This document shows, in pieces, positions 12,465 through 44,844 of a DNA stretch of 64,000 bases. The position numbers and the translations under genes are program-made. The stretch comes from Verrucomicrobiota bacterium. Lineage in GTDB: Bacteria > Verrucomicrobiota > Verrucomicrobiia > Limisphaerales > UBA9464. The notes under the pieces are model-generated. The model did no database searches, was not told the DNA's origin, and saw only the letters and a list, made by a program, of their open reading frames with translations. Position 1 is the first letter of the stretch. Every line of letters begins with the position of its first letter. The stretch spans positions 78,882 to 142,881 of the forward strand of contig CANGKZ010000002.1 in the NCBI GenBank assembly GCA_947454705.1, read 5' to 3'.

Positions 12465-12508
12465 GATCCAGCCGCGCGCGAACTTCGCGCATGAACGCGA
12501 CGCGCGGC

Positions 12509-13246: not shown

Positions 13247-13379
13247 TCGTGGAGCTTGATGATTTCGACGGAATCAGGCGATTCCCAAAATGGCACTGTG
13301 CGGGATCAACCGAGAAATGAAGTTTGAGCCGCAGATGGAAGTGGAGGGAGGCAGATGAAGCTGCATCCAGTGTGGTTCA

Positions 13380-13422
13380 ACGGGGCGGCTTCAGAATCGA
13401 CATTTGGATCGCCGCCCCGTTG
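13380..13422 (-). other. 11-bp GC-rich stem-loop between the kinase and sigma genes
   Basis: AACGGGGCGGC-(21 nt)-GCCGCCCCGTT starts 15 nt after the kinase stop codon on the minus-strand transcript. No U-tract follows. Confidence 0.35.
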
Positions 13423-13436
13423 TCGTTCTGAAGGCT

Positions 13437-23953: not shown

Positions 23954-23955
23954 GA

Positions 23956-23970
23956 ATGAACCTGTTTCAT
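23956..23970. promoter_or_regulatory. candidate LysR box (T-N11-A dyad)
   Basis: ATGAAcctgtTTCAT is a perfect 5+5 dyad containing TGAA-N5-TTCA. It lies 3 nt upstream of the LysR start, in the divergent gap to the nitrate operon. Confidence 0.45.
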
Positions 23971-24120
23971 TGAAACCAGTTGGATTTAGAGGAGCACTCA
24001 TTCGGCCAACTTTTGGATTTCGGCATTCCGGCGGCTTGTGGTGCCGGCGTGACGACCGCAATCCATGCACCACAACGCGCCTCCGGGACGGGGACGGTGC
24101 GTTCCAATTCCGGGTCCGGA

Positions 24121-26410: not shown

Positions 26411-26448
26411 GCCGGGCCCGAAAACCCAGTCGCTGATTCCGAATTCCG

Positions 26449-27669: not shown

Positions 27670-27717
27670 CCGTTTTGCCCGCATCTGTTGGTTCCCATTT
27701 CCCTGTTTCCCTGTGTC

Positions 27718-28512: not shown

Positions 28513-28546
28513 TCCGATCCCTTCCCACACCTGCCCAAACCAAGCC

Positions 28547-29467
28547 ATGGCATTTCTCCAACTCCAGGGAGTCTCGATGGGCTACGGCGTGCCCGGGGGC
28601 CGAACCGAGGTGCTTGCCGACATCGATCTCGAGATCGAGCAGGGCGAGTTCGTGGCGATCGTTGGATACTCCGGATCGGGAAAGACCACGCTGATGTCGA
28701 TCCTCGCGGGACTCATCCGCCCCGAAAAGGGACGCGTGATCTTCGACGGGCAGGACACCCCGGGACCGGGTCCGGACCGCGGACTCGTGTTCCAGAATTA
28801 CAGCCTGCTTCCCTGGCTCACGGTTCACGAGAACGTCTCGCTCGCGGTGGACCAAGTCTTCCCGCAGCTGAGCGAATCGGAACGCAAGAGCCACACCGAT
28901 CGGTTTGTGCAGATGGTGAATCTCACCCCGGCACGCGACAAACGTCCGAGCGAACTCTCCGGCGGCATGCGTCAGCGCGTGAGTGTGGCCCGAACCCTGT
29001 CCATGCAGCCCAAGGTGCTGTTGCTCGATGAACCGCTCGGCGCCCTCGATGCGCTGACCCGCGCGACGCTTCAGGATGAAATCTCCCGCATCCGTCTGGC
29101 CGAGAAGCAGACCGTGGTGTTGATCACGAATGATCCGGATGAAGCCATCCTGCTGGCCGACCGCGTGATCCCGCTCACCGCGGGTCCGCGCGCGACGCTC
29201 GGACCGAGCATTCCCGTGACGCTGTCGCAGCCGCGCGATCGCCGCACGCTGCTGGGCAATTACGACTTCAAGCAGATCCGCCACGAGGTGATCCAGTACC
29301 TGCTCAAGGCGCGTCCGCGGCATCGCACCACGCTCTCCCGTTCGCTCGTGCTTCCCGACGTGGAACCCGAGGACATCACGCATCGCCCGCCCCCACTGTT
29401 CGCCAAGCCGGGCAGCGCGCGGAGAAAGAGTGAAATGAAGACCGAATCGGTGGAGGTGACCCTGTGA
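28547..29467 (+). CDS. nitrate ABC transporter ATP-binding protein (NrtC-type core, no C-terminal NrtA-like domain)
   Basis: It has Walker A GYSGSGKTT, the signature LSGGMRQR and Walker B LLLDEP. Confidence 0.85.
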   Translation: MAFLQLQGVSMGYGVPGGRTEVLADIDLEIEQGEFVAIVGYSGSGKTTLMSILAGLIRPEKGRVIFDGQDTPGPGPDRGLVFQNYSLLPWLTVHENVSLAVDQVFPQLSESERKSHTDRFVQMVNLTPARDKRPSELSGGMRQRVSVARTLSMQPKVLLLDEPLGALDALTRATLQDEISRIRLAEKQTVVLITNDPDEAILLADRVIPLTAGPRATLGPSIPVTLSQPRDRRTLLGNYDFKQIRHEVIQYLLKARPRHRTTLSRSLVLPDVEPEDITHRPPPLFAKPGSARRKSEMKTESVEVTL

Positions 29468-30309
29468 GCGCGCACCTCGAACTCTTCAACCTCACCAAGG
29501 TGTATCCCTCGAAAAAGGGGCCGCAGACCATTGTCCGCGATTTCAACCTCCAGATTCCGAAGGGCGAATTCGTCAGCATCATCGGCCACTCCGGCTGCGG
29601 AAAATCCACGGTGCTCATGATGGTGGCCGGTCTCACCACGGTGACCAGCGGCGGCATCATCCTGGCCGGACGCGAACTCAGCGGGCCCGGCCCGGACCGC
29701 GGAATTGTGTTCCAATCACCCTCGCTCCTTCCGTGGATGACCGCGCGCGAGAACGTGATGCTCGGCATCAACCAGGTGTTCTTCACCGCCACCGAACAGG
29801 AGCGCGCGCAGATCGCCGAGTACTACCTCAGCGTGGTGGGGCTCGCGGACTTCATGGACAAGCGTCCCGCGGAGTTGTCCCAGGGCATGCGCCAGCGCGT
29901 GGGCATTGCCCGCGCCTTCGCGCTCAAGCCGAAGATGCTCCTGCTCGACGAGCCGTTCGGCATGCTTGATTCCCTCACGCGCTACGAATTGCAGCAGGTG
30001 CTCATCGACCTGTGGCGACGCAATCAGATCACCACCGTCATGGTGACGCACGATGTGGACGAGGCGCTGTATCTGTCGGACCGCGTGGTCTGCATGACCG
30101 ACGGCCCCGAGGCCGGCATCGGCGAGATCCTCAACGTCCCGCTCCCCCGGCCGCGCGACCGCAAGGCCATCCTTGAGCTCCCCGAGTATCACCGTCTTCG
30201 CGCCACGCTCATCGAGTTCCTCGAAGTCCGTGCCCATCACCGTCCCAACTCCTCCAACTCTCCTTCCGGCGCAGCAACCCCGCCGGCGTCCGTTCCCGTT
30301 TCCGCCTGA
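29464..30309 (+). CDS. nrtD: nitrate ABC transporter ATP-binding protein
   Basis: GTG 29464 overlaps the upstream stop (GTGA). It has Walker A GHSGCGKST, the signature LSQGMRQR and Walker B LLLDEP. Confidence 0.85.
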   Translation: MSAHLELFNLTKVYPSKKGPQTIVRDFNLQIPKGEFVSIIGHSGCGKSTVLMMVAGLTTVTSGGIILAGRELSGPGPDRGIVFQSPSLLPWMTARENVMLGINQVFFTATEQERAQIAEYYLSVVGLADFMDKRPAELSQGMRQRVGIARAFALKPKMLLLDEPFGMLDSLTRYELQQVLIDLWRRNQITTVMVTHDVDEALYLSDRVVCMTDGPEAGIGEILNVPLPRPRDRKAILELPEYHRLRATLIEFLEVRAHHRPNSSNSPSGAATPPASVPVSA

Positions 30310-30337
30310 ACCCGACTGATCTCCCATTCGAATTCCC

Positions 30338-31870
30338 ATGAACACTCCCTCCCCCATCACCTCTCCGGCCCGAACCGCTCTCGCCGCCGCGGCGGTGCTC
30401 GCGGTCGCCTGTTCCATCACGTCGTCCCAAGCCTCGCCGCCGCTCGACCTCGGGATCAACACGCCGCTCCGCCCCAGCACCGGTTATCTCAATGATTACC
30501 TGCGTGCCGATGATCCCTACATGGCCGCATGGAACCTCGGCGTGCAGTATCGTGCGCGGTACGAGATCAAGGAAAACGGCGGCGCGACCGGCGCGGGATC
30601 GGGAACTGACTTTTCCGCCAAACCCGGCGTCGCCAATGACAATGCGTATCTGCTCCAGAAGACGCTGATCCGCGTCGGCTACACCGCCAAGTGGTGGGAG
30701 GCGTTCGTCCAGGGTCGCAACAGCTCGAGCACGAGCGACAAGCGTCCCAGCACTGGTGCACTGCCCGGATCGGGCGCGGGACCAGAGTCCGACGGCCCCA
30801 TCGATCTCCACCAGGCCTACATCAGCGTCGGCAACCACAAGGAATTCCCATTCTCCGTTAAAGTGGGACGCCAGGAGCTGAGCTACGGCGAGGAGCGTCT
30901 GGTGGGTGCGTTCGCCTGGAACAATATCGGACGCGTGTTCGATGCCGCGAAGTTGCGCTGGCAGAACTCGTGGTTCTCGGGCGACTTCTTCACCTCGCGT
31001 ATCGTCCTGCCCGACGACAACAACTTCAACACGCCGAACGACTACGACTACTTCTCCGGCGCGTACCTCACCTCGAAGAAGATTCCGACGATGCAGACGG
31101 AATTCTACTTCCTCGCCCGCAACGCGAGCCCGCAGGCCACCGCCCCTGGACCGCGCAGCCCGTTCACCGTCGGAACGGCGCGCGACATCTACACCGTCGG
31201 TGCCCGTCTGGTCACCGCCACCAACGACTGGGGCAACATCAACTTCTTCGTCGATGGCGCGTACCAATTTGGACACTACAACGATCCGGCCATCGCCGCG
31301 GTCGGCGCGCGCGGTCTCGAACAGAAGGCCTACATGGTGGTGGCCAACGGCAGCTACACGTGGCAGGAGGCGGCCTTCACGCCGAAGCTCGGATTGGAAT
31401 ATTGCTTCGGCTCCGGTGACTCGAACCCCACCGACGGCAAGCACGAGACGTTCGAGAATCTCTTCCCCACCAACCACAAGTTCTACGGCTTCGCGGATTT
31501 CGCCTCGCTGCAGAACCTTCACGACGTCCGCCTCTACAGCAGCGTCAAGCCGCTCTCCCGTTTGACGCTCCTCGCCGAGGCGCATCTGTTCTGGTTGGCC
31601 GACACCCACGACAATTTCTACAACGTCGGCGGCGCGCGCCGCGGCGGCCTCGCGGCCACCCCGGGCACCGGATACGGAATCAATCCCGGATACAGCTCGG
31701 ACCTCGGCACCGAAACCGACCTGATCGCCACCTGGGCCCTGTCCCCGTACGCCAGCATCGAAGTCGGCTACTGCCACTTCTTCCGCGGCAACTACGTGAA
31801 GGACTCGCTCTCCGTGATCGGATCCAAGGATGCCGACTACGTGTACCTCCAGACTCAGCTGAGCTTCTGA
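30338..31870 (+). CDS. outer-membrane beta-barrel porin, alginate-export (AlgE-like) family
   Basis: It has a signal peptide (AAAAVLAVACSITSSQA), IDLHQAYISVGN...VKVGRQELSYGEERLVGAFAWNNIGRVFDAAKLRW, alternating-residue strands and a terminal aromatic F. Confidence 0.75.
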   Translation: MNTPSPITSPARTALAAAAVLAVACSITSSQASPPLDLGINTPLRPSTGYLNDYLRADDPYMAAWNLGVQYRARYEIKENGGATGAGSGTDFSAKPGVANDNAYLLQKTLIRVGYTAKWWEAFVQGRNSSSTSDKRPSTGALPGSGAGPESDGPIDLHQAYISVGNHKEFPFSVKVGRQELSYGEERLVGAFAWNNIGRVFDAAKLRWQNSWFSGDFFTSRIVLPDDNNFNTPNDYDYFSGAYLTSKKIPTMQTEFYFLARNASPQATAPGPRSPFTVGTARDIYTVGARLVTATNDWGNINFFVDGAYQFGHYNDPAIAAVGARGLEQKAYMVVANGSYTWQEAAFTPKLGLEYCFGSGDSNPTDGKHETFENLFPTNHKFYGFADFASLQNLHDVRLYSSVKPLSRLTLLAEAHLFWLADTHDNFYNVGGARRGGLAATPGTGYGINPGYSSDLGTETDLIATWALSPYASIEVGYCHFFRGNYVKDSLSVIGSKDADYVYLQTQLSF

Positions 31871-31918
31871 ACCGGCACGGATCCGATTTCACCGCTGCGT
31901 TTCATACCACTCCCAGTC

Positions 31919-33724
31919 ATGCCCGTGGTCCCGCGAATTCCTGAAAGCGCCCCCTTCACGCCGCAGCAGCGGGCGTGGCTCGATGGATACCTCGCGGGCC
32001 TTCTCTACGACGCTCCGGGCAACGGAGCGTCGGGTGCGACTGCGACGGCGAGTGCATCAATCCCGGTACAGCGCATTCCGCTGCTGGTGGCCTTTGGGTC
32101 GCAGACCGGATCGGCGGGGAACCTGGCCAAGTCGATCTCGCGTGAGGCGGATCGACGCGGCTTTCAATCCACGCTCAAGGAACTGAACACCGTCTCTCCT
32201 GCGGATCTCGCGGCCCAGTCGCTCTGCGTGCTGGTCACCAGCACGTGGGGCGACGGCGATCTGCCCGACAACGGCGTCGAGTTTTGGAATGCCCTTCGCG
32301 GTGACACCGCGCCGCGAATGGAATCGCTTCGCTTCGCGGTGTTGGGATTGGGCGACAAAAACTACGCCGACTTCTGCGGGGCCGCGCGGAAGTTGGATGA
32401 ACGGCTCGCCACCCTCGGTGCACGACGCCTCGTTCCCCGGGGCGAGTGCGATGTCGATTTTCAAGCCGCCGCTGCGGCATGGACGGCGTCGTTGTGGTCC
32501 GCGTTGGAAGCGGAGAAATCGGGAGCCAGTTCCGCTCCCGCAGCGGCACCCGCTTCGGTCGTTCCTGCGAACCCCGCTCTCGAGCACCCGGCTCCCGCCT
32601 ACTCCCGCGCCAAGCCGTTCGGCTCCCGCCTCCTCGTGAATCGGAAGCTCAACCGCGAGGGTTCCGAAAAAGATACGCGCCATCTGGAGCTCTCGCTCGC
32701 GGGAAGTGGATTGACCTATGAGGCGGGCGACGCGCTGGGCGTGGTGCCTTCGAATCCTCCAGCTTTGGTGGATGCAGTCCTCACGCGGCTCGGATGTTCG
32801 GGTGGTGAGTCCATTGCTCTCGCCGATGCCGGAGCGATCCCGCTCGGCGAAGCGCTGTCCCGCCGTCTGCTGTTGTCGGCGATTCCCGATTCCTTCCTTC
32901 AGGAGTCGGCCAAGCGGTCTTCTAACTCCGCGTTGATGGCGCTGTTCCAACCGGATCAGAAGCCGGCGTTGGAAGCGTGGAAGTACGGCCGCGACATCCT
33001 CGACGTTTTGGAGGCGTGTCCGGCGGCTAAGTTTGATCCCGCTGAATTCACCGGCTTCCTGCGCAAGCTCCAGCCGCGGTTGTACTCCATTGCCTCGTCC
33101 CCGAAGGCGCATCCGGGCGAGGTGCATCTCACGGTGTCGGTGGTGCGGTACGAGACCCACGGTCGCAAGCGCACCGGGCTTTGCTCCGGATTCCTGGCCG
33201 ATCATGTGGCCCTGCGCGAAACCGAGGTGCCGGTGTACGTGCAGACCTCGCACGGGTTCCGTCTGCCCACGGATGGTTCGGTGCCGGTGATCCTCATCGG
33301 ACCGGGCACCGGCATCGCGCCGTTCCGCGCCTTTCTGGAAGAGCGGCGCGCCACCGGGGCCAGCGGTTCCAACTGGTTGTTTTTCGGCGACCAGCGTCGT
33401 GCGGTTGATTTCCTGTATGAGGAGGAGCTGGTGCCGATGCATCAGGATGGATTCCTCACGCGGCTCGATCTGGCCTTCAGCCGCGATCAGGCGGCCAAGA
33501 TTTACGTGCAGGACCGCATGCGCGAGCACGGAGCAGAACTCTGGAAGTGGCTCGAGCGCGGTGCGCATCTGTACGTGTGTGGCGACGCCAAGCGCATGGC
33601 CAAGGATGTGGATGCGGCGTTGCGCCAGGTGATCGAGCAGGCCGGCGGCCGCACGACCGATCAAGCCGCCGAGTACGTGGCCGCGCTCAAGACGGCCAAG
33701 CGGTATCAGCGCGACGTGTACTGA
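31919..33724 (+). CDS. CysJ-like diflavin (FMN flavodoxin + FAD/NADPH) reductase
   Basis: The flavodoxin part has LLVAFGSQTGSAGNLAK...TSTWGDGDLPDN. The FNR part has RLYSIASSP, GLCSGFL, IGPGTGIAPFRAF, FFGDQ and YVCGD...MAKDV. The N-terminal roughly 50 aa carry the motif QQRAWLDGYLAGLL. Confidence 0.85.
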   Translation: MPVVPRIPESAPFTPQQRAWLDGYLAGLLYDAPGNGASGATATASASIPVQRIPLLVAFGSQTGSAGNLAKSISREADRRGFQSTLKELNTVSPADLAAQSLCVLVTSTWGDGDLPDNGVEFWNALRGDTAPRMESLRFAVLGLGDKNYADFCGAARKLDERLATLGARRLVPRGECDVDFQAAAAAWTASLWSALEAEKSGASSAPAAAPASVVPANPALEHPAPAYSRAKPFGSRLLVNRKLNREGSEKDTRHLELSLAGSGLTYEAGDALGVVPSNPPALVDAVLTRLGCSGGESIALADAGAIPLGEALSRRLLLSAIPDSFLQESAKRSSNSALMALFQPDQKPALEAWKYGRDILDVLEACPAAKFDPAEFTGFLRKLQPRLYSIASSPKAHPGEVHLTVSVVRYETHGRKRTGLCSGFLADHVALRETEVPVYVQTSHGFRLPTDGSVPVILIGPGTGIAPFRAFLEERRATGASGSNWLFFGDQRRAVDFLYEEELVPMHQDGFLTRLDLAFSRDQAAKIYVQDRMREHGAELWKWLERGAHLYVCGDAKRMAKDVDAALRQVIEQAGGRTTDQAAEYVAALKTAKRYQRDVY

Positions 33725-33743
33725 ATCGAATCCAAGAACTCCC

Positions 33744-35489
33744 ATGACCTGGACCGAGATCGCTGGAGAAAAACTGAACGCGGAGCAGGGGGCCTATCTC
33801 GACGGACTGTTCGCCGGGTTGCGCAATCGCGGATTCTCCTTCGCCGATGCGGCGCCGGGACCTTCGGGCGGGGCGGTCGCAACGCCGCCGCCGTTGGAAG
33901 ACCTCATCCCCGAGGAGCGGATCAAGCGTGAGCTGCATCCGCTCGATGCCTATCCGCTGCTGCTCCAGCACGCCACGGCGAATCAGGGACCCGACCGCGA
34001 GAACACCTTTCGCTTCAAGTGGAATGGCCTCTTCTACGTCGCGCCGAAGCAGGACGGCTACATGGCACGCCTTCGGATTCCGGGCGGACAACTCTTCAGC
34101 TTCCAACTCCGTGAACTCGCGGCGATCGCCGACGAACTCACCTCCGGCTACACGCAGATTACAACCCGGGCGAATCTGCAAATGCGGCTCATCCAGCCCC
34201 GCGACACGATTGAATTCCTGCGCCGCGTCCAGGGCACCGGCCTCCACACCCGCGGCGCGGGCGCGGACAATGTTCGGAATCTCACCTGCGATCCCACCAG
34301 CGGCTTCGCCCCCGAAGAATTGATCGAGACCATGCCCCTGACGCAGGGCCTCGCTCAGTTAATCCTCAACCACCGCGAGTTCTACGACCTTCCCCGCAAG
34401 TTCAACATCGCCTTCTACGGCGGCGGCCCGATCCCCACGGTCGAGGACACCAACGACATTGGCTTCCGCGCCGTCCGTATCGAAGCCTCGAAAGAGGACG
34501 CTCCCGGAATTGAACCCGGCGTGTACTTCCGCGTGGCGCTCGGCGGTGCCACCGGACACAAGGCCTTTGCCCGCGATCTCGGCGTGCTGGTGAAGCCTGA
34601 TCAGGCCGTGCAGGTGGCGGGTGCGCTGCTGCGGGTTTACGTCGCGAATGGAAATCGGACGGATCGAAAGAAGGCGCGGCTCAAGCACCTGCTCGAGACC
34701 TGGACCCTCGAACGCTACCTCGCCGAGACCGAGCGACTTCTCGGCCACACGTTGCTTCGCGCTCCCGCGGAAACCGTCGTGCCCGAACCCCCGAGTACTT
34801 CGCATCCGCAGGTGGGCGTGTTCCCGCAAAAGCAGCGCGGACTGAACTGGATTGGCGTCGCCGTGCCCGTGGGACAGATCACCTCGCGTCAGTTGCGCCG
34901 GCTCGCGGAACTTTCCGAACTTTACGGCAACGGGGAGGTGCGGCTCACCGTGTGGCAGAACCTGATTCTCCCGGGCATTGGCGATGCGTTTGTCGAAACG
35001 GTGAAGAAGGCGCTGGTGCGGATTGGGCTCGATTGGAAGGCGTCCAATGTCGGCACCGGGATCATCGCCTGCACCGGAAACCGCCACTGCAAGTTTGCGA
35101 GCGCCGACACCAAGGGCCACGGGCTCGCGCTGATGAAGCACCTCGAATCGCGCGTGGAGCTCGATCAACCCATCAACATCCACCTCACCGGATGCCCGAA
35201 CTCGTGCGCGCAGCACTACATGGGCGACCTCGGATTGCTCGGGGCGACGGTTAAGGTCGGCGGCGAATCCCGCGAGGGGTATCACATTTTTGTCGGCGGC
35301 GGATTCGGCTCCCGCCAGGCAGTGGGACGCCAGCTCTTCCAGGGCGTCACGCTTCAGGAACTCCACTCCACGGTGGAACGGATCCTTCGCGGCTACCTGC
35401 GTCATCGGAGCGCGGGCGAATCCTTCCAGGCCTTCACGGTTCGACACGAGATCGGCCGGCTGCAGGAACTGTTCGCCGAGCCGGTGTGA
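33744..35489 (+). CDS. nirA: siroheme/[4Fe-4S] nitrite (or sulfite) reductase hemoprotein, NirA-type
   Basis: Cluster and siroheme Cys motifs are IACTGNRHCKFA and TGCPNSCAQHYMGDLGL, with two NIR_SIR repeats. The nitrate context favours nitrite reductase. The N-terminus carries EQGAYLDGLFAGL. Confidence 0.8.
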   Translation: MTWTEIAGEKLNAEQGAYLDGLFAGLRNRGFSFADAAPGPSGGAVATPPPLEDLIPEERIKRELHPLDAYPLLLQHATANQGPDRENTFRFKWNGLFYVAPKQDGYMARLRIPGGQLFSFQLRELAAIADELTSGYTQITTRANLQMRLIQPRDTIEFLRRVQGTGLHTRGAGADNVRNLTCDPTSGFAPEELIETMPLTQGLAQLILNHREFYDLPRKFNIAFYGGGPIPTVEDTNDIGFRAVRIEASKEDAPGIEPGVYFRVALGGATGHKAFARDLGVLVKPDQAVQVAGALLRVYVANGNRTDRKKARLKHLLETWTLERYLAETERLLGHTLLRAPAETVVPEPPSTSHPQVGVFPQKQRGLNWIGVAVPVGQITSRQLRRLAELSELYGNGEVRLTVWQNLILPGIGDAFVETVKKALVRIGLDWKASNVGTGIIACTGNRHCKFASADTKGHGLALMKHLESRVELDQPINIHLTGCPNSCAQHYMGDLGLLGATVKVGGESREGYHIFVGGGFGSRQAVGRQLFQGVTLQELHSTVERILRGYLRHRSAGESFQAFTVRHEIGRLQELFAEPV

Positions 35490-35514
35490 ACCATTTTTGA
35501 TCCGCACTGCCGTC

Positions 35515-37224
35515 ATGACGCGTCCGCATCTTGCCGAGTCCCCCGGGGAAGACGTCGGCACGTTGATCGATGCGTTGATCCGCGAGCAGCAGCAGCTCAG
35601 CGCCGTGGAGGCCTTCTCCGCCCGGCACGATTCCGCGGGCCCCGCGCTTGAGGGGCAGTACCGACACCTCATCCCGCTTACCGCGCCGCGGCCCGGCGAA
35701 CAGTACGGATTCCAGGTGGATCTCGACCGCTGCTCCGGCTGCAAGGGATGCGTCACCGCCTGCCATTCGCTCAATGGATTGGAACCCGGCGAGAGCTGGC
35801 GCGAGGTGGGCCTGTTGGTGGGCGAAGCCATCCTGCCGCGACCCGCGGGAGCCGGTCCGGGCTCGGTTGCGTTGCCCGTGCAGCGGACGGTGACCACGGC
35901 CTGCCATCACTGCATCGAGCCCGCGTGCCTGCTCGGCTGCCCGGTGCTGGCCTACGACAAGGAGCCGGTCACCGGCATTGTGCGTCACCTAGACGACCAA
36001 TGCATCGGATGCAGCTACTGCATCATGACCTGTCCGTACGAGGTCCCCAAGTTCTCCAAAAAGCGCGGAATCGTTCGCAAATGTGATCTTTGCCACGGAC
36101 GCCTCTCCGAAGGCGAGGCGCCGGCGTGTGTGCAGGCGTGTCCGAATCAAGCCATCCAGGTGACGCTGGTTTCGCGGGAGTGGGTGCGATTGGAATTCCG
36201 TCCGCCCGGCGGAGCGAAAGACAACGCGACTGCCTGCGGAAGCACGTGGCTGCCGGACGCGCCGCAACCGGGCATCACGCTTCCCACCACGCGTTATCTC
36301 ACGCGGAATCCCGATGTCTCGCTGGTGGCGGCCGATCACTTTGAATCCAAGCCTCAGCCCGCGCACGTGCCGCTGATTCTGCTGCTGATCGGCACCCAGA
36401 CGGGAATGGGCGGCATGGCGGTTGCCGCGCTGATGCACTGGATCGGAGCCGCGGATCGAAGTGGACCAGGATTGGTTCAGCTGGGATTTGCCGCGATGAC
36501 GTTGTTTGGGGTCGGCATGCTGGGCAGTGTCGCCCACCTGGGCCGGCCGCAGAAGGCGTGGCGCGTGTGGATGGGATGGCGAACCAGTTGGTTGAGCCGC
36601 GAGGCGATGATTCTCCCCGTGTTTGGTGCCGTGGCTGGCGGTGTACTGACCGACTGGATGGCGCGGCTCTGGATTCCGGAGCATTGGATTTCCACGCCGG
36701 TCGCCGCGCCTGTCGTGGCCGCCGTGTGGATCGTCGCGCTGCTTTGCCTGATTGCCCAGACGCAGGTGTACGCCAGCACCGCCCGATGGAGCTGGCGCGT
36801 GGGATCCACGTTTCCGCGATTTGTTGGATCGAGTGTCATTCTTGGATCCGCGCTCGGCCTCGCTGTTCCGGCTGCTGCGGAACAGAGCGCGCCCCTGTTG
36901 CTGTCGCTCGTGATCGCGAGTGTGTGGAAGCTCGTTCTTGAAGTCCGAGCCGTGACCGGACGGGGCATCGATGCGCGATGGAAGGTGGAATCCGACCGTC
37001 AAATCCGGCTGCTCAGCGGACCGTTGCGAATCTTCTGGGGACTCCGCGTATCGATCAGCCTGCTGTCGGGAATCGCGCTGCCGTTGGGACTGCTGGTCGG
37101 ATCCGGGAAGGTGAGTCCGATGGTTGGTGCGAGTTTGTTTTTGGGGGCGCTCTCTGGAGAAGTGCTGGAACGATGGTTGTTTTTCCGCGCTGCGGCGCAG
37201 AACCGGATGCCGGGAATGCCATGA
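35515..37224 (+). CDS. fusion of a DmsB/PsrB-like four-cluster ferredoxin and an approximately 8-TM DmsC-like membrane anchor
   Basis: ORF 35290..37224 trimmed to ATG 35515 ([11 protein letters not shown]). The Cys motifs are [37 protein letters not shown] and CDLCHG...ACVQACP. The C-terminal half has about eight hydrophobic helices. There is no RR leader. Confidence 0.8.
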
Positions 37225-39473
37225 AGCACGATGCGTCAACCGAAGGACCGATTCCGGTACGCCCGCCCAACACGCTCCTGCGCGAGTGGACGGGGCCGAT
37301 GACGTCGGACCTCGTGCGGTCACCGGGCGCGTTCGGACTCGGCCAGGTCCCGTCGCGGCTCAAGCCGGATTCCGTCACCACCGCGGTGTGTGGGTTTTGC
37401 TCCACCGGATGCGGGCTCAAGCTGCACCTGCGCGAGGGTGAGGCGGTGAACGTCACGCCCGATCCGGCGTATCCGGTGAATTTGGGAATGGCGTGTCCCA
37501 AGGGCTGGGAAGTGCTCGCTCCGCTCGAGGCGACCGATCGCGTCACCACGCCGCTCCTGCGCAATCCGGCGAGCGGGAAGCTCGAACCGGTGTCATGGGA
37601 ACAGGCGATGACGGCGTTCGTCACGCGCATGCGCGGCGTGCAGGAGCGGCACGGAGCCCATTCCATCGCGTACCTGAGCACGGGGCAGATCTGCACCGAG
37701 GAAATGGCCTACCTTGGGGCGTTGTTCAAATTTGGGATGGGCGGATTGCACGGCGATTCCAACACCCGCCAGTGCATGGCCACCGCGCACGTGGCGTACA
37801 AGCAGAGTTTCGGATTTGATGCGCCGCCTTACACCTACGCGGATTTCGAGGAGTCGGACGTGCTGGTGTTCGTGGGCGCGAATCCGTGCATCGCGCATCC
37901 CATCCTGTGGCAGCGGGTGCTGAGGAATCCGCATCGGCCCGAGATCATCGTGCTGGACCCGCGCCGCACCGAGACCGCAGTCAACGCCACGCTGCATCTC
38001 CCGCTCGCGCCGAAGTCGGACCTCACCCTGCTGTACGGAATCGCGGCGGCGCTGATCGCCCGCGGTGCGGTGAACCAGGCGTTTGTCGAAGCCCACACCG
38101 AGGGCTACGAGGCGTTCGCCGCGTTCGTCGCGAACTTTACCCCGGAGCAGGCCTGTGCTGCAGCGGAGTTGGAGCGTACCGAGTTTGATCGATGCGTGGA
38201 TCTCATCGCCCGCGGCAAGCGCGTGAGCTTCTGGTGGACCATGGGAGTGAACCAGGGTCACGAGTCCACGCGCACTGCGCAGGCGTTGATCAACATCGCG
38301 TTGATGACCGGCAATATTGGTCGACCGGGCACGGGGGCGAATTCGATCACCGGTCAGTGCAACGCGATGGGCTCGCGGTTGTACGCCAATGCGACTTCGC
38401 TCCTGGGCGGACGTGACTTTGCCCAGCCTGCGCACCGCGCCCGTGTGGCGGCGGACCTCGGGATCGATCCCGCGCGTGTGCCCGACCAGAGTTCGTGGGC
38501 CTACGATCAAATCATCGATGGCATCGACCGGGGCGACATCAAGGGCCTGTGGGTGATCGCCACCAACTCCTCGCATTCGTGGATCGACGGCGGGAGGTTC
38601 GACCGGATTCTCGACAAGCTGGATTTCCTCGTGGTGCAGGACTTGTACGCCACCACGGACACGGCGCGTCGGGCGGACCTGATTCTCCCCGCCGCTGGAT
38701 GGGGGGAGAAGGAAGGCACGCTGATCAACAGCGAGCGGCGGATCGGCCGGGTGAAGAAGGTGCGTCGCGCGCCGGGCGTGGCGTTGAGTGATTTCGCGAT
38801 CTTCCGATTGGTCACTGCGGCGTGGGGATGCGGTTCGATGTTTGCGGAATGGAATTCCCCCGAGGCCGTGTTTCACGTGTTGAAGCGGCTCAGTGCGGGT
38901 CAGCCGTGCGACATGACCGGCATTCGCGACTACGCGCATTTGGATCAATCGGGCGGAATCCAATGGCCGTGGCCCGCCGCCGCGGGCGATGCCCTGGAAC
39001 AGGAGCCGGCCACGGAGCGGCGTTTGTTTTCCGATGGGCGCTTTCCCACGGCGTCGGGACGTGCGCGGTTCCTGTTCGATCCCCCGCGGGCCGTGGCCGA
39101 GCCCACCGATGCGGAGTATCCGTTTGTGCTGATGACCGGTCGCGGATCCTCGGCGCAGTGGCATACCAACACGCGCACGGGGAAGTCGGATATTTTGCGT
39201 CGGCTCTATCCGGCCGAGGCGTACGTGGAGATTCATCCCGCGGATGCTGCGCGGCTGGGGATCCGACCGCATGCGAAGGTGGTGGTGCGGACGCGTCGGG
39301 GCAGTTTGGAAGTGAATGCGTTTGTGACCCCGACCGTTCGGGAAGGGCAGGTGTTCCTGCCGATGCATTACGACGGCGTGAATCGCCTGACGGCACCGGC
39401 CTTTGATCCGCACTCACGTCAGCCGAGCTACAAGCACTGCGCTGCGGTGCTTGAGGCGAGGTTGAACGGTTGA
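37221..39473 (+). CDS. nasA: assimilatory-type molybdopterin nitrate reductase catalytic subunit (NasA/NarB-like), no Tat leader
   Basis: ATG 37221 overlaps the upstream stop (ATGA). It has the N-terminal [4Fe-4S] motif [13 protein letters not shown]...GMACPKG plus bis-MGD domain strings ([37 protein letters not shown]). The 5' part of track ORF 36978..39473 was discarded. Confidence 0.85.
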
Positions 39474-39721: not shown

Positions 39722-42700
39722 TCACTTCCTCCGTCCCGCGGCATCGACTTCCACCGGCGAGACAAACACGTACAACCGTTTCTGGTACGTGCTGGTGGAT
39801 TCGGATCGGAACAGGCGGCCCAGCAGCGGGACATCGCCCAGCACCGGCACCTTGTCCTTCATCCGCACCGTTTCGGTCACCAACGGGCCGCGCAACGCCA
39901 GGGTTCCGCCCAGCGGGAACGTGGAGTCCGCAATCGCCATGCGAATGCGCAGGTGCGGAAGGGGAACGATGCCCTTCAACGGCTTCCCGCCCGGTTGTGC
40001 GGCCGCGACGCTTTGACCCTTCGGATCATCGTATCCGAGGAACTCGGTGATCTTCGCCGTCAGATGCATGCGCAGGGAATCTCCTTCGAGAATGGGAAGA
40101 AACTCCACCGAGGGACCGAGATCGACGGATCGGGTTTGATACTGCACCGCGGCCTTGTTGGTGCTGGATCCGGACACCGCCTTGACGTCATCGACCAGGG
40201 TTTTGGTTTCAGTGACCGTCACCTTGGTTTGCCGGCCGGACGAGGTTAGGACCTTTGGCGCTGTCAGCAATTCGGTGCCCGCCTGCGCTTCGAGCCGCGC
40301 GATCAGGGCCTTGAACTGCTCGGGCGTGAGTTCCGCCCGTTCGCCAATGGTTCGCAGCAGGTCCACACGATACCGGTTGTCCTGTGCGATCGATGGCGTG
40401 GCCTCCAACTCCTGCACCGATCCGGGTTCGATCACCGACGCTTTGTTTGTGGAGTTCCCGAAGATCCAATCCAACCCCAACCCGCTGACGTTTGATTCGC
40501 GCACCTCGGCGAATTTGATTTCCACCTCAATCTGGCGTGGGTCGGCGGTCAGGGATTCGGGAGCGGCGACTTTGGCGTGGGTCGGCGCGGATGACGCGGA
40601 TGGAATGAAGGGCTTTGAGGGCGCAGTGGCGCGTTCGAGCTCTGACTCCAGTGCATTCCGGGCCTGCACGGCCTCAACTACTTTTGGGTGTTTCCAGCGG
40701 TACTTGGTTCTCAACTCCTTCAGGTTGTCTTCGGCCTGTTGGAGTCGGTTTCGAAGGTTATGGATGTAATTGACCTCCTTTACCGGGTCAGCCTCGCGCA
40801 GGGCGATGTAAGTGGAGTGCTCGGACGGACCTCGTTGGGCTTCAACCGCTGTGGAACCCGAGGCTGGTTTCGAAACGGGGCGGGTTTCGAGTTCCGATGC
40901 AATGGGGCTGCTCGTCACCAACGAGAGCGCTCGTCCAATGCGATCAAGCTCAGGCATCGAAGCGCGCACAAAAAGCCCTCCCAACTGTTCTTGAAGAAAC
41001 ACGGCTCTTTGATCCTGCGGAGACGCGGTGTTGGTAGATCCGGGCGTGGGTTTGAATTCCGTAAACACCACTCCCTGTTCGGCGCAAAAGGCGCGTACCT
41101 CGGCCTGGACGTCGGGGTAGATGGTGGTGTCGCCCGCCTTCGTGCGTCGGCTTCGGATCAGCGCGAGAAACCTGGGTGGATCGACATGGAACTGCCGGGT
41201 GCGAAGCGGCCACTTTCCGGAGGCAATCGTGCGGAACACGATCTCGTCCCCATTCAGCACCCATTCCACCGGAGTCGTGCAGTTGTCGGCAACCGATTCC
41301 AGCCTGTGAGGCAGAGGGCCGGAGCCCATGTTAAGGGTCTGCCCGATTTTGAGTCCCTTCGTGGCCACCGTGATCCGCCAGCTCCTCTTTTCCGGGTCAG
41401 CGTCGCGAATCATGGACTGAAGTTTTGTAGCAACGTCTTCCAGCGGTCCTTCCGGGATGGAAAGGAACGGCAGGGTAATTGCGTCCAATTTGTTGGTTCC
41501 GCTGCGTGCGGACTCCTTCCGTTGGATCAGCGGTGAAAGGATTTGACCGATGTGATCCAGCGTCGAACGCGGAGCACGAACCGTGAGCGTGTTGATTTTT
41601 GTGTGATAGGAGATCGCTTCCAACCCTGTGGTTAATTCCTGCTTGGGAGCATGAGTGAGCGAAGAAGAAAGGAGGCTCAAATCTTCACCGAGCGTCGACG
41701 GATTCTTAGGTCCACCTTCGGACAGATTGAGGCCTTTCATCTGAATGTAGTGCAATATCTCACGATAGGTGATGTTGGTTTCCCAGGAAGGACGAAACGT
41801 AGTCAGCCCGACCTCCAATCGGACAGGGTCGAGAACATATTGCCGCGCCTCCACCGGCCCGGAAGGGGGCTCGGTAATCAAGGCGCCGCCCACCGGTGTC
41901 CAGATCACAGACGCCGATTCGCATACGGCATCCAAAGTCTGTCGAAGGGTAACTTGTTTCAGCGAAATCGGATGTCGAAGTCGCTTGGATCCCAATGCCG
42001 GGGAATCCGTCCAACTAAACCCGCCACCGCTGCCTGCGGTGGTAGAAAGCTTTCCGACGTGTATCGGGAATCCGGTCTTCTTCGGGTCATGCTTTCGGAC
42101 GAGGTCGAACAGGGCGGTTGCGGCTTCACCCAGCGTGATCGTTCCAAGTTCGAAACTGGGTAGAACGATGGTATCCAGCTTCTCATTGTCACTTCCGACG
42201 AATTCCCCCTTGGTCACGAGAAATGCGGCGCTGCTGAAGTTTTCGTTCACGCGCTTCGCATCGTATCCGACCAACGATCCATCCCCGAGGCGGTTGGTTT
42301 CGATGGATTCCAGCGAGCCGCGGGTGGCGAAGGGGTTTGGCTCTGGGACCGACTGGGTGGTTCTAACAGCGCGCAGATTGGATTTATTTGAACTCGATTC
42401 GGACTTCGCCTCGGTGGCGCCGCCGTTCGCGGTCGCTGGCTTCGGTTCCAGCGATTCGATGGATTCCAACGCCGCGACCAGTACGGGTTGCGCGCCTTCG
42501 CCAGGCCAGGGGGCGATGCCGATGGCGAGGATGGTTCCGAGCGCGCCGGCGAGGGTCACTCGCGTCAGCAGGCGCGAGGCGGCGTGGGCTGGAGCGCTGA
42601 GCAATCGCGTCACACGACCGGCGAGTTCGGACTTCAATCCGCCGACGCCGAATCCTGCGGGCGAGGCCTCGGCAGTGAGTTGATGCCCGAAGGCCACCAG

Positions 42701-43519
42701 CGCCTCGGCGAGGGCAATGCGTCCGCCTGGGATCAGGCTGCTGGCTTCATCGGCCGCCGCCTCACTGGTGGCACGCAGACGCCGACGCGCCCACCACACC
42801 GCCGGATGCCACCACAGAAGTCCGGTGAGGACATCGCTGATCGCCAGCCAGAGCGGGTCGCGCGCGGCCAGGTGCGCGAGCTCGTGCGCGAGGAGGACCT
42901 TGAGTTCGAGGTCTCCGTGTTGATTCGCAAATCCGCGCGGCAGCAGCACCGTGGGCCGCAGAATTCCAAATGCCACCGGGCCTCCAAACCCGGCGGCTTC
43001 GCGGAGTCGCACGCGGCGCGGGGCGAGGCCGAGTCGATCGGCAATCTCCCGGGCTGCCGCCACGTCCACGCGCTCGCTGTGTCGCACGAGTTTCCCCAAC
43101 TGCCAGCGGCTGCGCACGGAGCGAACCAGAATTGATACCGTCCCAAGCAGCCACAGGGCGAACAGAAGCGTGGGCCAGTGCGAGGGGGCGGGAGGTTCGA
43201 CCGGCGCGGGCATTTCGGCCGCGAACTGGGAGGGATCGACTTCCGCGGAGGGAACTGGCGCGGCGACTTCGGTAATGAACCTGCGGGGTTCAGTGCGGCG
43301 CGACTCGGAGCGCAGCCATTGGGCGGCGGCGCGCCGCGCTTCCGTGCGGAGCCCGGTGAGTTCCACCACGGTGAGCAGCGCTAGGATGCTGAGAATGGCG
43401 CACCAAAGGCGGCGCCGGTCACGCACCGACGGTAGAAGTCGTTCGGCCACGATGCCGACCCCGGCCACCAGCAGCACCTCGCTGGCGAGGGTGATCAAAA
43501 GTGATGCGAGAGGGTTCAT
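39722..43519 (-). CDS. BlaR1-type M56 metallopeptidase sensor fused to a long periplasmic region and a C-terminal secretin domain
   Basis: The N-terminal TM helices carry the HEXXH site LLAHELAHLAARDPLW and WWHPAVWWARRRL (M56). The middle has repeated STN/secretin-N-like units (LDAITLPFLSIPEGPLEDVATKLQSMIR) and a Wzz/PCP-like helix (LRTKYRWKHPKVVEAVQARNALESEL). The C-terminus IEVEIKFAEV...LTAPKVLTSSGRQTKV...VPVLGDVPLLGRLFRS...LYVFVSPVEV is a secretin signature. Confidence 0.8.
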   Translation of the reverse strand: MNPLASLLITLASEVLLVAGVGIVAERLLPSVRDRRRLWCAILSILALLTVVELTGLRTEARRAAAQWLRSESRRTEPRRFITEVAAPVPSAEVDPSQFAAEMPAPVEPPAPSHWPTLLFALWLLGTVSILVRSVRSRWQLGKLVRHSERVDVAAAREIADRLGLAPRRVRLREAAGFGGPVAFGILRPTVLLPRGFANQHGDLELKVLLAHELAHLAARDPLWLAISDVLTGLLWWHPAVWWARRRLRATSEAAADEASSLIPGGRIALAEALVAFGHQLTAEASPAGFGVGGLKSELAGRVTRLLSAPAHAASRLLTRVTLAGALGTILAIGIAPWPGEGAQPVLVAALESIESLEPKPATANGGATEAKSESSSNKSNLRAVRTTQSVPEPNPFATRGSLESIETNRLGDGSLVGYDAKRVNENFSSAAFLVTKGEFVGSDNEKLDTIVLPSFELGTITLGEAATALFDLVRKHDPKKTGFPIHVGKLSTTAGSGGGFSWTDSPALGSKRLRHPISLKQVTLRQTLDAVCESASVIWTPVGGALITEPPSGPVEARQYVLDPVRLEVGLTTFRPSWETNITYREILHYIQMKGLNLSEGGPKNPSTLGEDLSLLSSSLTHAPKQELTTGLEAISYHTKINTLTVRAPRSTLDHIGQILSPLIQRKESARSGTNKLDAITLPFLSIPEGPLEDVATKLQSMIRDADPEKRSWRITVATKGLKIGQTLNMGSGPLPHRLESVADNCTTPVEWVLNGDEIVFRTIASGKWPLRTRQFHVDPPRFLALIRSRRTKAGDTTIYPDVQAEVRAFCAEQGVVFTEFKPTPGSTNTASPQDQRAVFLQEQLGGLFVRASMPELDRIGRALSLVTSSPIASELETRPVSKPASGSTAVEAQRGPSEHSTYIALREADPVKEVNYIHNLRNRLQQAEDNLKELRTKYRWKHPKVVEAVQARNALESELERATAPSKPFIPSASSAPTHAKVAAPESLTADPRQIEVEIKFAEVRESNVSGLGLDWIFGNSTNKASVIEPGSVQELEATPSIAQDNRYRVDLLRTIGERAELTPEQFKALIARLEAQAGTELLTAPKVLTSSGRQTKVTVTETKTLVDDVKAVSGSSTNKAAVQYQTRSVDLGPSVEFLPILEGDSLRMHLTAKITEFLGYDDPKGQSVAAAQPGGKPLKGIVPLPHLRIRMAIADSTFPLGGTLALRGPLVTETVRMKDKVPVLGDVPLLGRLFRSESTSTYQKRLYVFVSPVEVDAAGRRK

Positions 43520-43581
43520 GCGGAGGGATTCCCTTCAGTTCACGGCCTGCGTTCGCGGGATTGAGGTGTCTTTTGCGGGGA

Positions 43582-43968
43582 TTATTGGGCGCGGCGCTTG
43601 GCTTCCTTGATCAGCTTTTCCAGCTGGTCGAGTTCGTCGCGGCTGACCTCGCGGCTGGTGAGGAGGTGGCTGACTGCCTCGGTGAGACTGCCGGCGGAGA
43701 GTCGATCCACGAGGTGTTGTCCCACGCTGCGGCTGACTTCCTCGGCCGCCACGAGCGCGCGGTAGAGAAAGCTGCGTCCCTCCTCGCGATGCGTCACCAG
43801 GCCGCGGGTCTCCATCTTTCGCAGCATGGTGGCCACGGTGGTGTAGGCGAGGTCGCGCTCGGGCTTCAATTCGGCGTGCACCTCGGCCACCGAGGAATCC
43901 GGCCGATCCCAGAGCGATTGAAGGATGCGAAGCTGGAGGTCTCCGAGGCGATGCGAGGGGGATTTCAT
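43582..43968 (-). CDS. BlaI/MecI/CopY-family transcriptional repressor
   Basis: It has LGDLQLRILQSLWDRPDSSVAEVHAEL...AYTTVATMLRKMETRGLVTHREEGRSFLYRA (winged helix); 128 aa. It lies immediately upstream of the M56 gene. Confidence 0.9.
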   Translation of the reverse strand: MKSPSHRLGDLQLRILQSLWDRPDSSVAEVHAELKPERDLAYTTVATMLRKMETRGLVTHREEGRSFLYRALVAAEEVSRSVGQHLVDRLSAGSLTEAVSHLLTSREVSRDELDQLEKLIKEAKRRAQ

Positions 43969-43991
43969 GGCGTTGAGAACGACCGTGGCAA

Positions 43992-44007
43992 TACTACCCG
44001 GGTAGTA
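43992..44007. promoter_or_regulatory. perfect 16-bp palindrome, candidate BlaI operator
   Basis: TACTACCCGGGTAGTA lies 24-39 nt upstream of the blaI-like start codon, in the gap shared with divergent fabI. It contains TAC...GTA half-sites reminiscent of BlaI/CopY boxes. Confidence 0.5.
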
Positions 44008-44073
44008 GCTGCGTCAAGAGAGGGCTTAAATGGGCTTGGGCCTTCTCCTGTTTTCCGGTTTGCTGGTGGGGCT

Positions 44074-44844
44074 ATGTCATCGCTTCAAGGTAAGTTCGGA
44101 GTTGTGTTCGGCGTCGCCAACAAACGTTCCATCGCGTGGGCGATCGCCCAGGCGTGGAAACGGGAGGGGGCCACATTGGCGTTCACCTATCAGGGCGAGC
44201 GTCTGAAGGAGAACGTCGAGGAGCTCGCCGGGACCTTCGGGCCGGACACGCTGATCCTGCCGTGCGATGTGACCCGCGATGAGGACATCGATGCGGTGTT
44301 CGCCAAGGTGGGCGAGAAGTTTGGTCGCTTGGATTTGCTGCTCCACTCCGTCGCCTACGCGCCGCGCGAGGCCTTGGAAGGAGATTTTCTCAACACCAGC
44401 CGTGACGCCTTCAAGGTGGCGCACGATGTGAGTGCGTATTCGCTGATCGGCGTGTCGCGCGCCGCGGCTCCGCTGATGACCAACGGCGGCAGCATCATTG
44501 CGATGAGCTACTACGGCGCGGAGAAGGTGATCCCGCACTACAACGTGATGGGTGTGGCGAAGGCCTCGCTCGAAGCCTCCACGCGGTATCTGGCGTACTC
44601 GCTGGGCACCCGGAAGATCCGTGTGAACTGCATCAGCGCGGGCCCGATGAATACCCTGGCCGCGCGCGGCATTGCCGGGTTTGGCGACATGCTGAAGCAC
44701 TACGAAGCCCACGCCCCGCTCAAGCGCAACGTGCTGCCTGATGAACTCGGTGCGACCGGTGCGTTCCTGGCCTCGGATGGCGCGGCTGCGATCACGGGTC
44801 AGGTCCTGTACGTGGACGCGGGATATCAGATCATGGGGATGTGA
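44074..44844 (+). CDS. fabI: enoyl-[acyl-carrier-protein] reductase (NADH), FabI
   Basis: ORF 43501..44844 trimmed to ATG 44074 (MSSLQGKFGVVFGVANKRSIAWAIA). It has YYGAEKVIPHYNVMGVAKASLE (the Tyr/Lys catalytic pair) and ISAGPMNTLAA; 256 aa. Confidence 0.9.
   Translation: MSSLQGKFGVVFGVANKRSIAWAIAQAWKREGATLAFTYQGERLKENVEELAGTFGPDTLILPCDVTRDEDIDAVFAKVGEKFGRLDLLLHSVAYAPREALEGDFLNTSRDAFKVAHDVSAYSLIGVSRAAAPLMTNGGSIIAMSYYGAEKVIPHYNVMGVAKASLEASTRYLAYSLGTRKIRVNCISAGPMNTLAARGIAGFGDMLKHYEAHAPLKRNVLPDELGATGAFLASDGAAAITGQVLYVDAGYQIMGM

Follow-up and report, generated by a model that had tools for sequence, protein, structure and literature searches.

Two adjacent genes in a 64,000-nucleotide stretch of DNA from a Verrucomicrobiota bacterium (contig CANGKZ010000002.1; the whole stretch is referred to below as the window) probably encode a membrane-anchored, cytoplasm-facing nitrate reductase that is fed by quinol and serves nitrate assimilation. 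The first gene encodes a fused electron-transfer and membrane-anchor subunit of 569 amino acids, and the second encodes a catalytic subunit of 750 amino acids with a molybdenum-bis(pyranopterin guanine dinucleotide) (Mo-bisPGD) cofactor. They stand at the 3' end of a series of nitrate-uptake and nitrite-reductase genes, all on one strand. This interpretation, drawn from sequence comparison and structure prediction, is carried by the conserved quinol-site residues of the anchor, the recurrence of the gene pair beside nitrite reductase genes, the active-site pattern of the catalytic subunit, and the distribution of charge along the anchor loops.

In the proposed mechanism, two polypeptides with three modules, of the complex iron–sulfur molybdoenzyme (CISM) kind, would lie on the cytoplasmic face of the inner membrane. 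Menaquinol would be oxidised at a DmsC-type site in the loop between anchor helices 2 and 3 (H341, E363) on that face, and the electrons would then be relayed by the four [4Fe-4S] clusters in the ferredoxin domain of the fused subunit to the N-terminal [4Fe-4S] cluster and the Mo-bisPGD centre (with Cys185 as ligand) of the 750-residue subunit. There, nitrate imported by NrtABCD would be reduced to nitrite, and nitrite would be converted to ammonium by NirA with a CysJ-like NADPH flavoprotein, or by NirBD in other phyla. Since both half-reactions would occur on the same side of the membrane, the nitrate step should be electroneutral. The cell would benefit by taking the electrons for nitrate assimilation from the quinol pool and not from ferredoxin or NAD(P)H. 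The layout resembles that of the cyanobacterial nirA-nrtABCD-narB operon and would represent its re-plumbing for a heterotroph, the ferredoxin-dependent steps being served by NADPH and the CysJ-like protein (nitrite) and by quinol and the fused subunit (nitrate). Menaquinone, the quinone of DmsC-type sites, is probably the one used by the phyla that carry the gene pair, and the step from menaquinol to nitrate spans approximately 0.5 V on standard potentials.

The fused subunit and its predicted quinol site

The first protein combines a DmsB-type four-cluster ferredoxin domain and a DmsC/NrfD-like anchor in one polypeptide, just as the earlier note on this DNA had read from its four cysteine motifs and about eight hydrophobic helices. 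The cysteines form the groups C73/76/79/83, C130/133/138/142, C163/166/169/173 and C190/193/205/209, and all 16 are invariant or at least 90% conserved in an alignment of 112 homologues. Pfam Fer4_11 matches residues 127-216, the best profile for the iron–sulfur (FeS) domain is DmsB of NCBIfam, and its best solved sequence relative in the PDB is FdnH (1kqf_B, E 1.1e-20); the narH model gives a partial match of 45 bits over residues 128-210. The membrane part is covered by Pfam DmsC (PF04976, residues 285-557, 53.3 bits against a cut-off of 22.3). Hydropathy and an AlphaFold2 (AF2) model agree on eight membrane helices (285-309, 318-342, 359-386, 398-420, 429-450, 458-481, 505-528 and 535-558 in the model), plus two short amphipathic helices. 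This model was calculated from the 112-sequence alignment and reached a mean local confidence (pLDDT) of 81 and a predicted template-modelling score (pTM) of 0.84, whereas an alignment of 14 sequences gave a pLDDT of 59. In Foldseek searches, the membrane part resembled PsrC (2vpw_C, TM-score 0.71 on the target) and ActC of alternative complex III, and the FeS part resembled FdnH and ArrB.

The anchor fits the DmsC/NrfD family pattern of at least eight helices arranged as two four-helix repeats, and it is presumably haem-free, an assumption made from its membership in the DmsC family. Taken as a pair, the two proteins carry the sequence features of CISM enzymes, namely a Mo-bisPGD subunit with an N-terminal cluster motif, a four-cluster module, and a DmsC-type anchor with aligned quinol-site residues. 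Both subunits also bear conserved, hydrophilic, clade-specific N-terminal extensions without any family match (Table 1).

The link to quinol comes from a BLASTP alignment with E. coli DmsC, in which H341 corresponds to His65 and E363 to Glu87. Changes of His65 in DmsC block quinol oxidation, and Glu87 is important in quinol binding (PMC8076601). Both residues are invariant in the 112 sequences, which strengthens the case for quinol as the likely electron donor.

The closest anchors in a plasmid collection belong to Burkholderia, Paraburkholderia and Rhizobium, and no full-length fused homologue was found in that collection. An annotated anchor at locus L093 (319 amino acids) is encoded by the third gene of a SoeABC-like layout, after a 977-residue molybdenum (Mo) subunit and a 251-residue FeS protein, both without leaders. 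The window anchor matches it with an E-value of 2e-13, compared with 1e-4 for E. coli DmsC. The two anchors have in common a 23-residue loop motif and a C-terminal ERWxFF, and their bias in lysine and arginine (Lys+Arg) runs in the same direction. The Mo subunit of L093 is Psr/Phs-like, with PhsA as the best profile, and NCBIfam has no Soe model; judged only by its architecture, L093 would be an authentic Soe enzyme. On these sequence features, the window anchor is assigned to the inverted, SoeC-like branch of the DmsC/NrfD family.

It might be argued that the anchor is only a tether, for example one holding the enzyme beside NrtABCD, and that no quinol is oxidised, with NAD(P)H supplying the electrons by way of the CysJ-like flavoprotein or, in other phyla, of NirB. 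The gene of this NADPH flavoprotein lies three genes upstream. Soluble donors serve the known Nas enzymes, and the sister-clade enzyme of Cetobacterium has a small 4Fe-4S protein and an FAD oxidoreductase as partners, amounting to a soluble NAD(P)H route. However, a passive tether would not need H341, E363 and the entire helix 2-3 loop to be invariant across three phyla. Moreover, eight conserved helices far exceed the needs of tethering, and the fused subunit is retained where NirBD replaces CysJ and NirA. A purely structural anchor is thus unlikely, even if it is the alternative that survives best.

Distribution and conserved neighbourhood

Relatives of the fused protein number in the thousands in the protein database, where they bear automatic names such as 'DmsC/YnfH family molybdoenzyme membrane anchor subunit', 'DMSO reductase anchor' and 'formate dehydrogenase iron-sulfur subunit'. 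When one genome per species was scanned, the pair of fused and Mo genes was present in at least 592 species-level genomes, a recurrence that speaks against a chance arrangement. Neighbourhoods were counted in the 80 best loci, 64 of which had room downstream and 36 of which had at least 8 kb on both sides. According to record titles, these 80 loci are mostly from Verrucomicrobiota; Planctomycetota (Gimesia and Adhaeretor mobilis), Myxococcota (with many complete genomes of Sorangium) and one Bryobacteraceae genome are also represented.

The Mo gene lies directly 3' of the fused gene, on the same strand, in 61 of the 64 loci; the copy at L070, split over three frames, makes a 62nd. This split copy (11720-14007) reflects either a frameshift or an assembly error. 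The stop/start overlap of the two genes in the window and their adjacency in 62 of the 64 loci suggest indirectly that the two proteins may form one complex. An assimilatory nitrite reductase is encoded nearby in 35 of the 36 loci (NirA in 20, NirB in 15), and the proximity of the fused gene to nitrate genes, as expected by the earlier note, holds almost always. The loci of Sorangium and several of those from Planctomycetes are ordered (MFS nitrate transporter)-nirB-nirD-fused-Mo, MFS being the major facilitator superfamily, and no CysJ-like gene was found in their flanks. In other words, the fused subunit is the constant partner of the nitrate reductase, while the types of nitrite reductase and transporter vary.

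Stand-alone anchors of approximately 300 amino acids were considered as a split form of the fused gene and rejected, the case looked up being a decayed locus with an anchor and a 54-residue Molydop_binding fragment. Such a decayed module, consisting of a 297-residue anchor without an FeS domain and then the 54-residue fragment, is seen at L094 (268-1431) and L095 (319-1482).

The neighbourhood also bears on whether the enzyme is mainly an electron sink, used in redox balancing or in nitrate respiration that conserves no energy, with assimilation as a by-product. Quinol-linked nitrate reduction is a respiratory pattern, cytoplasm-facing NarGHI supports nitrate ammonification together with NirBD in enterobacteria, and NirBD adjoins the pair in the Sorangium and Planctomycetes loci. 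Against this stands the tight linkage to a high-affinity ATP-binding cassette (ABC) nitrate importer, a porin, and either NirA/CysJ or NirBD, while respiratory accessory genes are absent from the operon. Furthermore, a haem-free DmsC-type anchor with both sites in the cytoplasm is not expected to form a redox loop. There is accordingly little reason to favour a predominantly dissimilatory role, and it is considered improbable.

The catalytic subunit

The earlier note had called the catalytic subunit NasA-type, and this description needs to be narrowed. Its placement on the Nas/Nap side and its nitrate-reductase signature stand, whereas equivalence to NasA does not: the NasA model NF041323 gives 475 bits against a cut-off of 1000, the protein falls in a clade of its own, and it is 36-38% identical to Nas references. 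The corresponding NCBIfam values are 432 bits (cut-off 666) for the formate dehydrogenase (Fdh) alpha subunit and 386 bits (cut-off 1100) for NasC (NF047855). Identity is 32% to NapA, 27.5% to FdhF and 22% to DmsA. Among solved structures, the monomeric NapA of D. desulfuricans scores best (349 bits), and in the alignment to it C185-M186 corresponds to C140-M141, D200 to D155, and M341 to M308; a multiple alignment places R386 at the arginine that Nas and NapA conserve. At the matching sites, E. coli FdhF and FdnG have selenocysteine (Sec)-His, Gly and no Arg.

A neighbour-joining tree with 200 bootstraps was calculated from 19 sequences, comprising nine members of the family, six plasmid-encoded relatives, and E. 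coli NapA, FdhF, FdnG and DmsA. Five of the six plasmid-encoded relatives are annotated as nitrate reductases (one as NasA), and the sixth is the Cetobacterium enzyme. The split of Nas plus Nap from Fdh plus DmsA was recovered in 196 of 200 bootstraps, in line with the clade expected by the earlier note. The family with the fused partner was recovered alone in 184, and together with the Cetobacterium enzyme in all 200. Most of the best plasmid-encoded relatives carry the annotation nitrate reductase and lie beside nirBD, an MFS transporter or nrt genes, and neither NarG nor NarI appeared among the family and PDB matches of the window pair.

Pfam shows no electron-transfer domain at the C terminus of the catalytic subunit. 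Its N-terminal extension measures approximately 45-55 amino acids across the clade, with the pattern LLRxWxGPLTxDLVRxPGxFGLGQVPxRLKPD, and is missing in the Cetobacterium sister and in the short-N-terminus soluble Nas references, where the cluster motif lies at residues 8-19. It occupies the position of the twin-arginine translocation (Tat) leader of NapA and FdnG and may be a docking element or a remnant leader.

These comparisons leave very little room for the view that the enzyme acts on another substrate, such as formate, chlorate, or an S- or N-oxide, and that its location in a nitrate operon is incidental. Such a view could draw on the closeness of the Fdh-alpha score to that of NasA, on the failure to reach any curated cut-off, and on F420-dependent and other formate dehydrogenases, which are strong PDB matches. 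Yet the active site has Cys-Met in place of Sec/Cys-His and agrees with NapA and Nas at Asp200, Met341 and Arg386, and the bootstrap separation from Fdh is accompanied by the linkage to nitrite reductase across phyla.

The side of the membrane

The FeS domain is predicted to face the cytoplasm. The absence of a twin-arginine leader, noticed earlier for the two window proteins, extends to their relatives: neither a Tat motif nor a hydrophobic leader was found in either protein or in 120 of 120 homologues of each. In the anchor loops of the window protein, Lys+Arg number 19 on the FeS side and 3 on the opposite side; among 13 relatives, counted with the helix boundaries of the window protein, the ranges are 15-21 and 0-4. 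E. coli DmsC has the reverse bias, a hand count giving 4 on the N-terminal side and 8 opposite. Under the positive-inside rule, the charges of the window protein and its relatives imply that the FeS domain is cytoplasmic, as is the loop between helices 2 and 3, and that the anchor is inverted relative to E. coli DmsC; the cytoplasmic location proposed earlier is thereby upheld. This orientation agrees with an operon that encodes a nitrate importer and a cytoplasmic nitrite reductase.

The DmsC/NrfD family typically has a periplasmic quinol site beside a periplasmic FeS subunit, an arrangement that the charge bias and the absence of export signals do not indicate here. Although most enzymes on such anchors face the periplasm (PMC8076601), a periplasmic complex reached by some unrecognised export route is extremely improbable in the present case, given that 240 sequences contain no Tat or Sec signal, that the loop charges point the other way, that the N-terminal FeS domain is a folded cofactor domain without a leader, and that the substrate is imported and the product consumed in the cytoplasm.

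The earlier note had regarded enzymes with an FeS subunit and a quinol anchor as respiratory and usually exported. As a general statement this is too narrow in one respect, as cytoplasm-facing precedents exist in NarGHI. SoeABC is another precedent and the sole NrfD-like complex thought to face the cytoplasm, and its inverted SoeC keeps His65 and Glu87 (PMC8076601).

Strength of the interpretation

Several points weigh against a quinol-fed assimilatory enzyme. Complex formation, nitrate as the substrate and quinol as the donor are all inferred. The CysJ-like NADPH flavoprotein encoded in the same operon could in principle feed the FeS domain. The catalytic subunit stays below the curated cut-off of every named nitrate-reductase model, and its placement within Nas is weak, with 83 of 200 bootstraps for a group of all Nas without NapA and 77 of 200 for the other value within Nas. 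The tree contains only 11 reference sequences, cyanobacterial NarB not being among them. The AF2 model represents the fused subunit alone, without cofactors or partner. Finally, loci L002 and L044 have no Mo gene 3' of the fused gene within the DNA examined.

A separate question is whether the complex conserves energy by releasing quinol protons, or pumping protons, to the periplasm through its inverted haem-free anchor. This is doubtful. Relatives among the NrfD-like anchors have been proposed to contain ion-conducting pathways (PMC8076601), and R424, R511, E549, E552 and R553 in the second four-helix bundle are nearly or fully invariant; if energy were conserved, these charged residues would be candidates for a proton path.

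Comparison with known systems

SoeABC, the sulfite:quinone oxidoreductase of Allochromatium vinosum and Aquifex aeolicus, is likewise Tat-less and three-part, and it is thought to face the cytoplasm on an inverted anchor in which His65 and Glu87 are present (PMC8076601); the SoeABC-like anchor of L093 is the most similar to the window anchor in motif, charge bias and E-value. In contrast, SoeABC is encoded by three separate genes without fusion of FeS protein and anchor, and its electrons run from the substrate to quinone. The SoeA-type subunit has approximately 950-980 amino acids and is Psr/Phs-like, whereas the window subunit is shorter and Nas/Nap-like.

DmsABC, the DMSO reductase of E. 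coli, shares with the pair a four-cluster DmsB-type module, an eight-helix haem-free anchor and conserved quinol-site residues (PMC8076601). It differs in that DmsAB is exported by Tat to the periplasm, DmsC has the opposite charge bias, and DmsB and DmsC are encoded by separate genes.

The catalytic subunit itself has much in common with the soluble assimilatory enzymes NasA, NasC and NarB, which are cytoplasmic and Tat-less, have an N-terminal [4Fe-4S] cluster, a Cys-ligated Mo-bisPGD and the same active-site pattern, and are encoded, as in the window, in the company of nitrate transporters and an assimilatory nitrite reductase. These enzymes lack the N-terminal extension of approximately 50 amino acids and a membrane partner. 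Their electron donors are ferredoxin, flavodoxin or NAD(P)H, the last acting by way of a diaphorase or a Rieske partner, whereas the constant partner of the window subunit appears to be a membrane-anchored four-cluster protein.

NarGHI, a quinol:nitrate oxidoreductase, is similarly membrane-bound and cytoplasm-facing with a four-cluster subunit, and it reportedly serves assimilation in Mycobacterium tuberculosis. NarG, however, belongs to another clade and has an Asp ligand, and NarI carries di-haem b and oxidises quinol at the outer face in a proton-motive redox loop; the window pair has a DmsC-type anchor and no counterpart of NarG, NarH and di-haem NarI as a set.

The nearest annotated relative of the catalytic subunit is the enzyme of Cetobacterium somerae (L082), which is 42% identical, groups as its sister in 200 of 200 bootstraps, and shares the motifs TR-x-CMAT and QCNAMGSR. 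It differs in that its partners are small and soluble; it lacks both the anchor and the N-terminal extension, and no genes of nitrate assimilation lie beside it in the stretch examined.

Operon layout and neighbouring genes

The genes at 23980-39473 on the forward strand form a single co-directional cluster that is tightly packed, with small gaps or overlaps between genes (Table 1). The earlier note had placed the pair at the end of this operon, and that position is borne out by the downstream neighbour of the Mo gene, which lies on the opposite strand (39722-43519). The coordinates and the 4-base overlap of the two genes, as reported in the earlier note, are correct, and the overlap and the 569- and 750-residue products recur in an independent gene call on two metagenome contigs that carry exact copies. 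Upstream starts at 35290 (TTG) and 36978 (ATG) were rejected, as they overlap the preceding genes, and homologues and the independent calls start at 35515 and 37221.

Table 1. Features of the nitrate-assimilation operon and of its terminal gene pair (positions in the window)
Feature	Position	Strand	Evidence or remark
LysR-family regulator	23027-24073	-	Pfam HTH_1 and LysR_substrate; divergent, upstream of operon
NrtA-like substrate-binding gene 1	23980-25173	+	Pfam NMT1_2, E 2.6e-72
NrtA-like substrate-binding gene 2	25148-26410	+	Pfam NMT1_2, E 1.3e-90
NrtA-like substrate-binding gene 3	26449-27669	+	Pfam NMT1_2, E 1.5e-83
NrtB permease	27688-28512	+	NCBIfam TIGR01183 ntrB, 209.1 bits (cut-off 209.05)
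Two NrtC/D ATPases	28547-29467, 29464-30309	+	NCBIfam TIGR01184 ntrCD, 282 and 314.8 bits
Outer-membrane porin, alginate-export family	30338-31870	+	Pfam Alginate_exp, E 1.2e-61
CysJ-like flavoprotein (flavodoxin, FAD and NAD(P)H domains)	31919-33724	+	Pfam; NCBIfam NF004859, 518 bits (cut-off 432)
NirA-family sirohaem/[4Fe-4S] nitrite reductase	33744-35489	+	NCBIfam NF007126, 738 bits (cut-off 523)
Fused electron-transfer and anchor subunit, 569 aa	35515-37224	+	Pfam, NCBIfam, alignment, AF2
Hydrophilic N-terminal region, aa 1-62	35515-35700	+	Conserved in alignments; no family match; low AF2 confidence
Four-cluster ferredoxin domain, aa 63-218	35701-36168	+	16 Cys; NCBIfam DmsB-type match over aa 63-218
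Eight-helix DmsC/NrfD-like anchor, aa 285-558, N terminus predicted inside the cell	36367-37188	+	Pfam DmsC, AF2 helices, Foldseek, charge bias
Predicted quinol-site loop, residues 341 (H) to 363, cytoplasmic face	36535-36603	+	Alignment to DmsC
ATGA stop/start overlap of fused and Mo genes	37221-37224	+
Mo-bisPGD catalytic subunit, 750 aa, Nas/Nap type	37221-39473	+	Pfam Molybdop_Fe4S4, Molybdopterin and Molydop_binding
Clade-specific N-terminal extension, aa 1-56	37221-37388	+	Where exported relatives have a Tat leader
First [4Fe-4S] cluster (FS0) motif, C57-x2-C60-x3-C64 ... C92-P-K93	37389-37499	+	Translation; Pfam Molybdop_Fe4S4, aa 51-95
TRQ-C185-M186-AT, Mo-ligand Cys then Met, nitrate-reductase signature	37764-37784	+	Aligned to NapA C140-M141

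Three tandem NrtA-like genes stand at the head of this operon, compared with one or two in related Verrucomicrobia loci. Their products may bind different ligands (for instance nitrate, nitrite and cyanate), or one of them may be a sensor. The porin gene lies between the ABC transporter and reductase genes, a position kept in many related loci, and its product is probably a nitrate or nitrite porin. The CysJ-like flavoprotein is presumed to be the electron donor of NirA, and the pairing of these two enzymes resembles the layout of CysJI sulfite reductase. In locus L096 (1737-6137), four extra genes are inserted between the porin gene and cysJ; they encode a 660-residue flavoprotein similar to the N-terminal part of NirB (Pyr_redox_2 and Fer2_BFD), a Tll0287-like protein, a globin, and a protein with faint multihaem-cytochrome matches. 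This insert may be an add-on for the handling of nitric oxide.

Since the HTH domain of the LysR protein starts only at residue 48 of the listed open reading frame (ORF), the true start of the gene is probably near position 23953. The non-coding strand of the window yields many spurious long ORFs; one candidate, at 24476-26467 on the reverse strand (663 amino acids, ATG start), was set aside as most likely spurious, as it has no family match and overlaps the NrtA-like genes. No terminator-like site was found 3' of position 39473. The 1265-residue product of the reverse-strand gene downstream has an N-terminal BlaR1-type M56 peptidase/sensor domain and a C-terminal secretin domain. The ORF at 43501-44844 encodes a short-chain dehydrogenase domain of the enoyl-ACP-reductase type (residues 204-442), preceded by approximately 200 residues without a match, and its listed GTG start may be too far upstream. 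Across the entire 64-kb window, no tRNA gene was found, and no Rfam family reached its gathering score.

Significance

No description of a Nas-type enzyme anchored by a DmsC/NrfD-like protein was found in open-access full text, a scope outside which most subscription-journal papers lie, so that a prior description is possible. A 2021 survey of all NrfD-like complexes does not include a Nas-type enzyme (PMC8076601), and one paper considered as a prior description (PMC4013037) was rejected because it concerns other enzymes. The modules are known throughout, and the family is abundant under automatic names; what is new is the recognition and not the sequence. The reading of 'nasA' matches in metagenomes would also be affected, the fused partner being named automatically in this way. 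Cultured carriers exist in Sorangium, Gimesia and Adhaeretor, which makes the idea directly testable.

In textbook accounts, bacterial nitrate assimilation has two electron supplies, namely ferredoxin or flavodoxin and NAD(P)H. If the present interpretation is true, a third supply would have to be added, in the form of a quinol-fed enzyme anchored in the membrane. This supply would be the usual one in Verrucomicrobiota and would occur also in Planctomycetota, Myxococcota and some Acidobacteriota, phyla that are abundant in soil and fresh water. Judging from the gene pairs, quinol-fed nitrate assimilation of this kind is most likely common in several bacterial phyla.

The pair would also provide, beside SoeABC, a second independent case of an upside-down anchor of the NrfD/DmsC type, and such an inverted anchor would be useful in understanding how haem-free anchors couple quinone chemistry to ion movement. 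For the bacteria themselves, the energy cost of growth on nitrate would shift, since the electrons would pass along the respiratory chain, in which energy can be conserved by complex I, and a direct drain on NAD(P)H or ferredoxin would be avoided.

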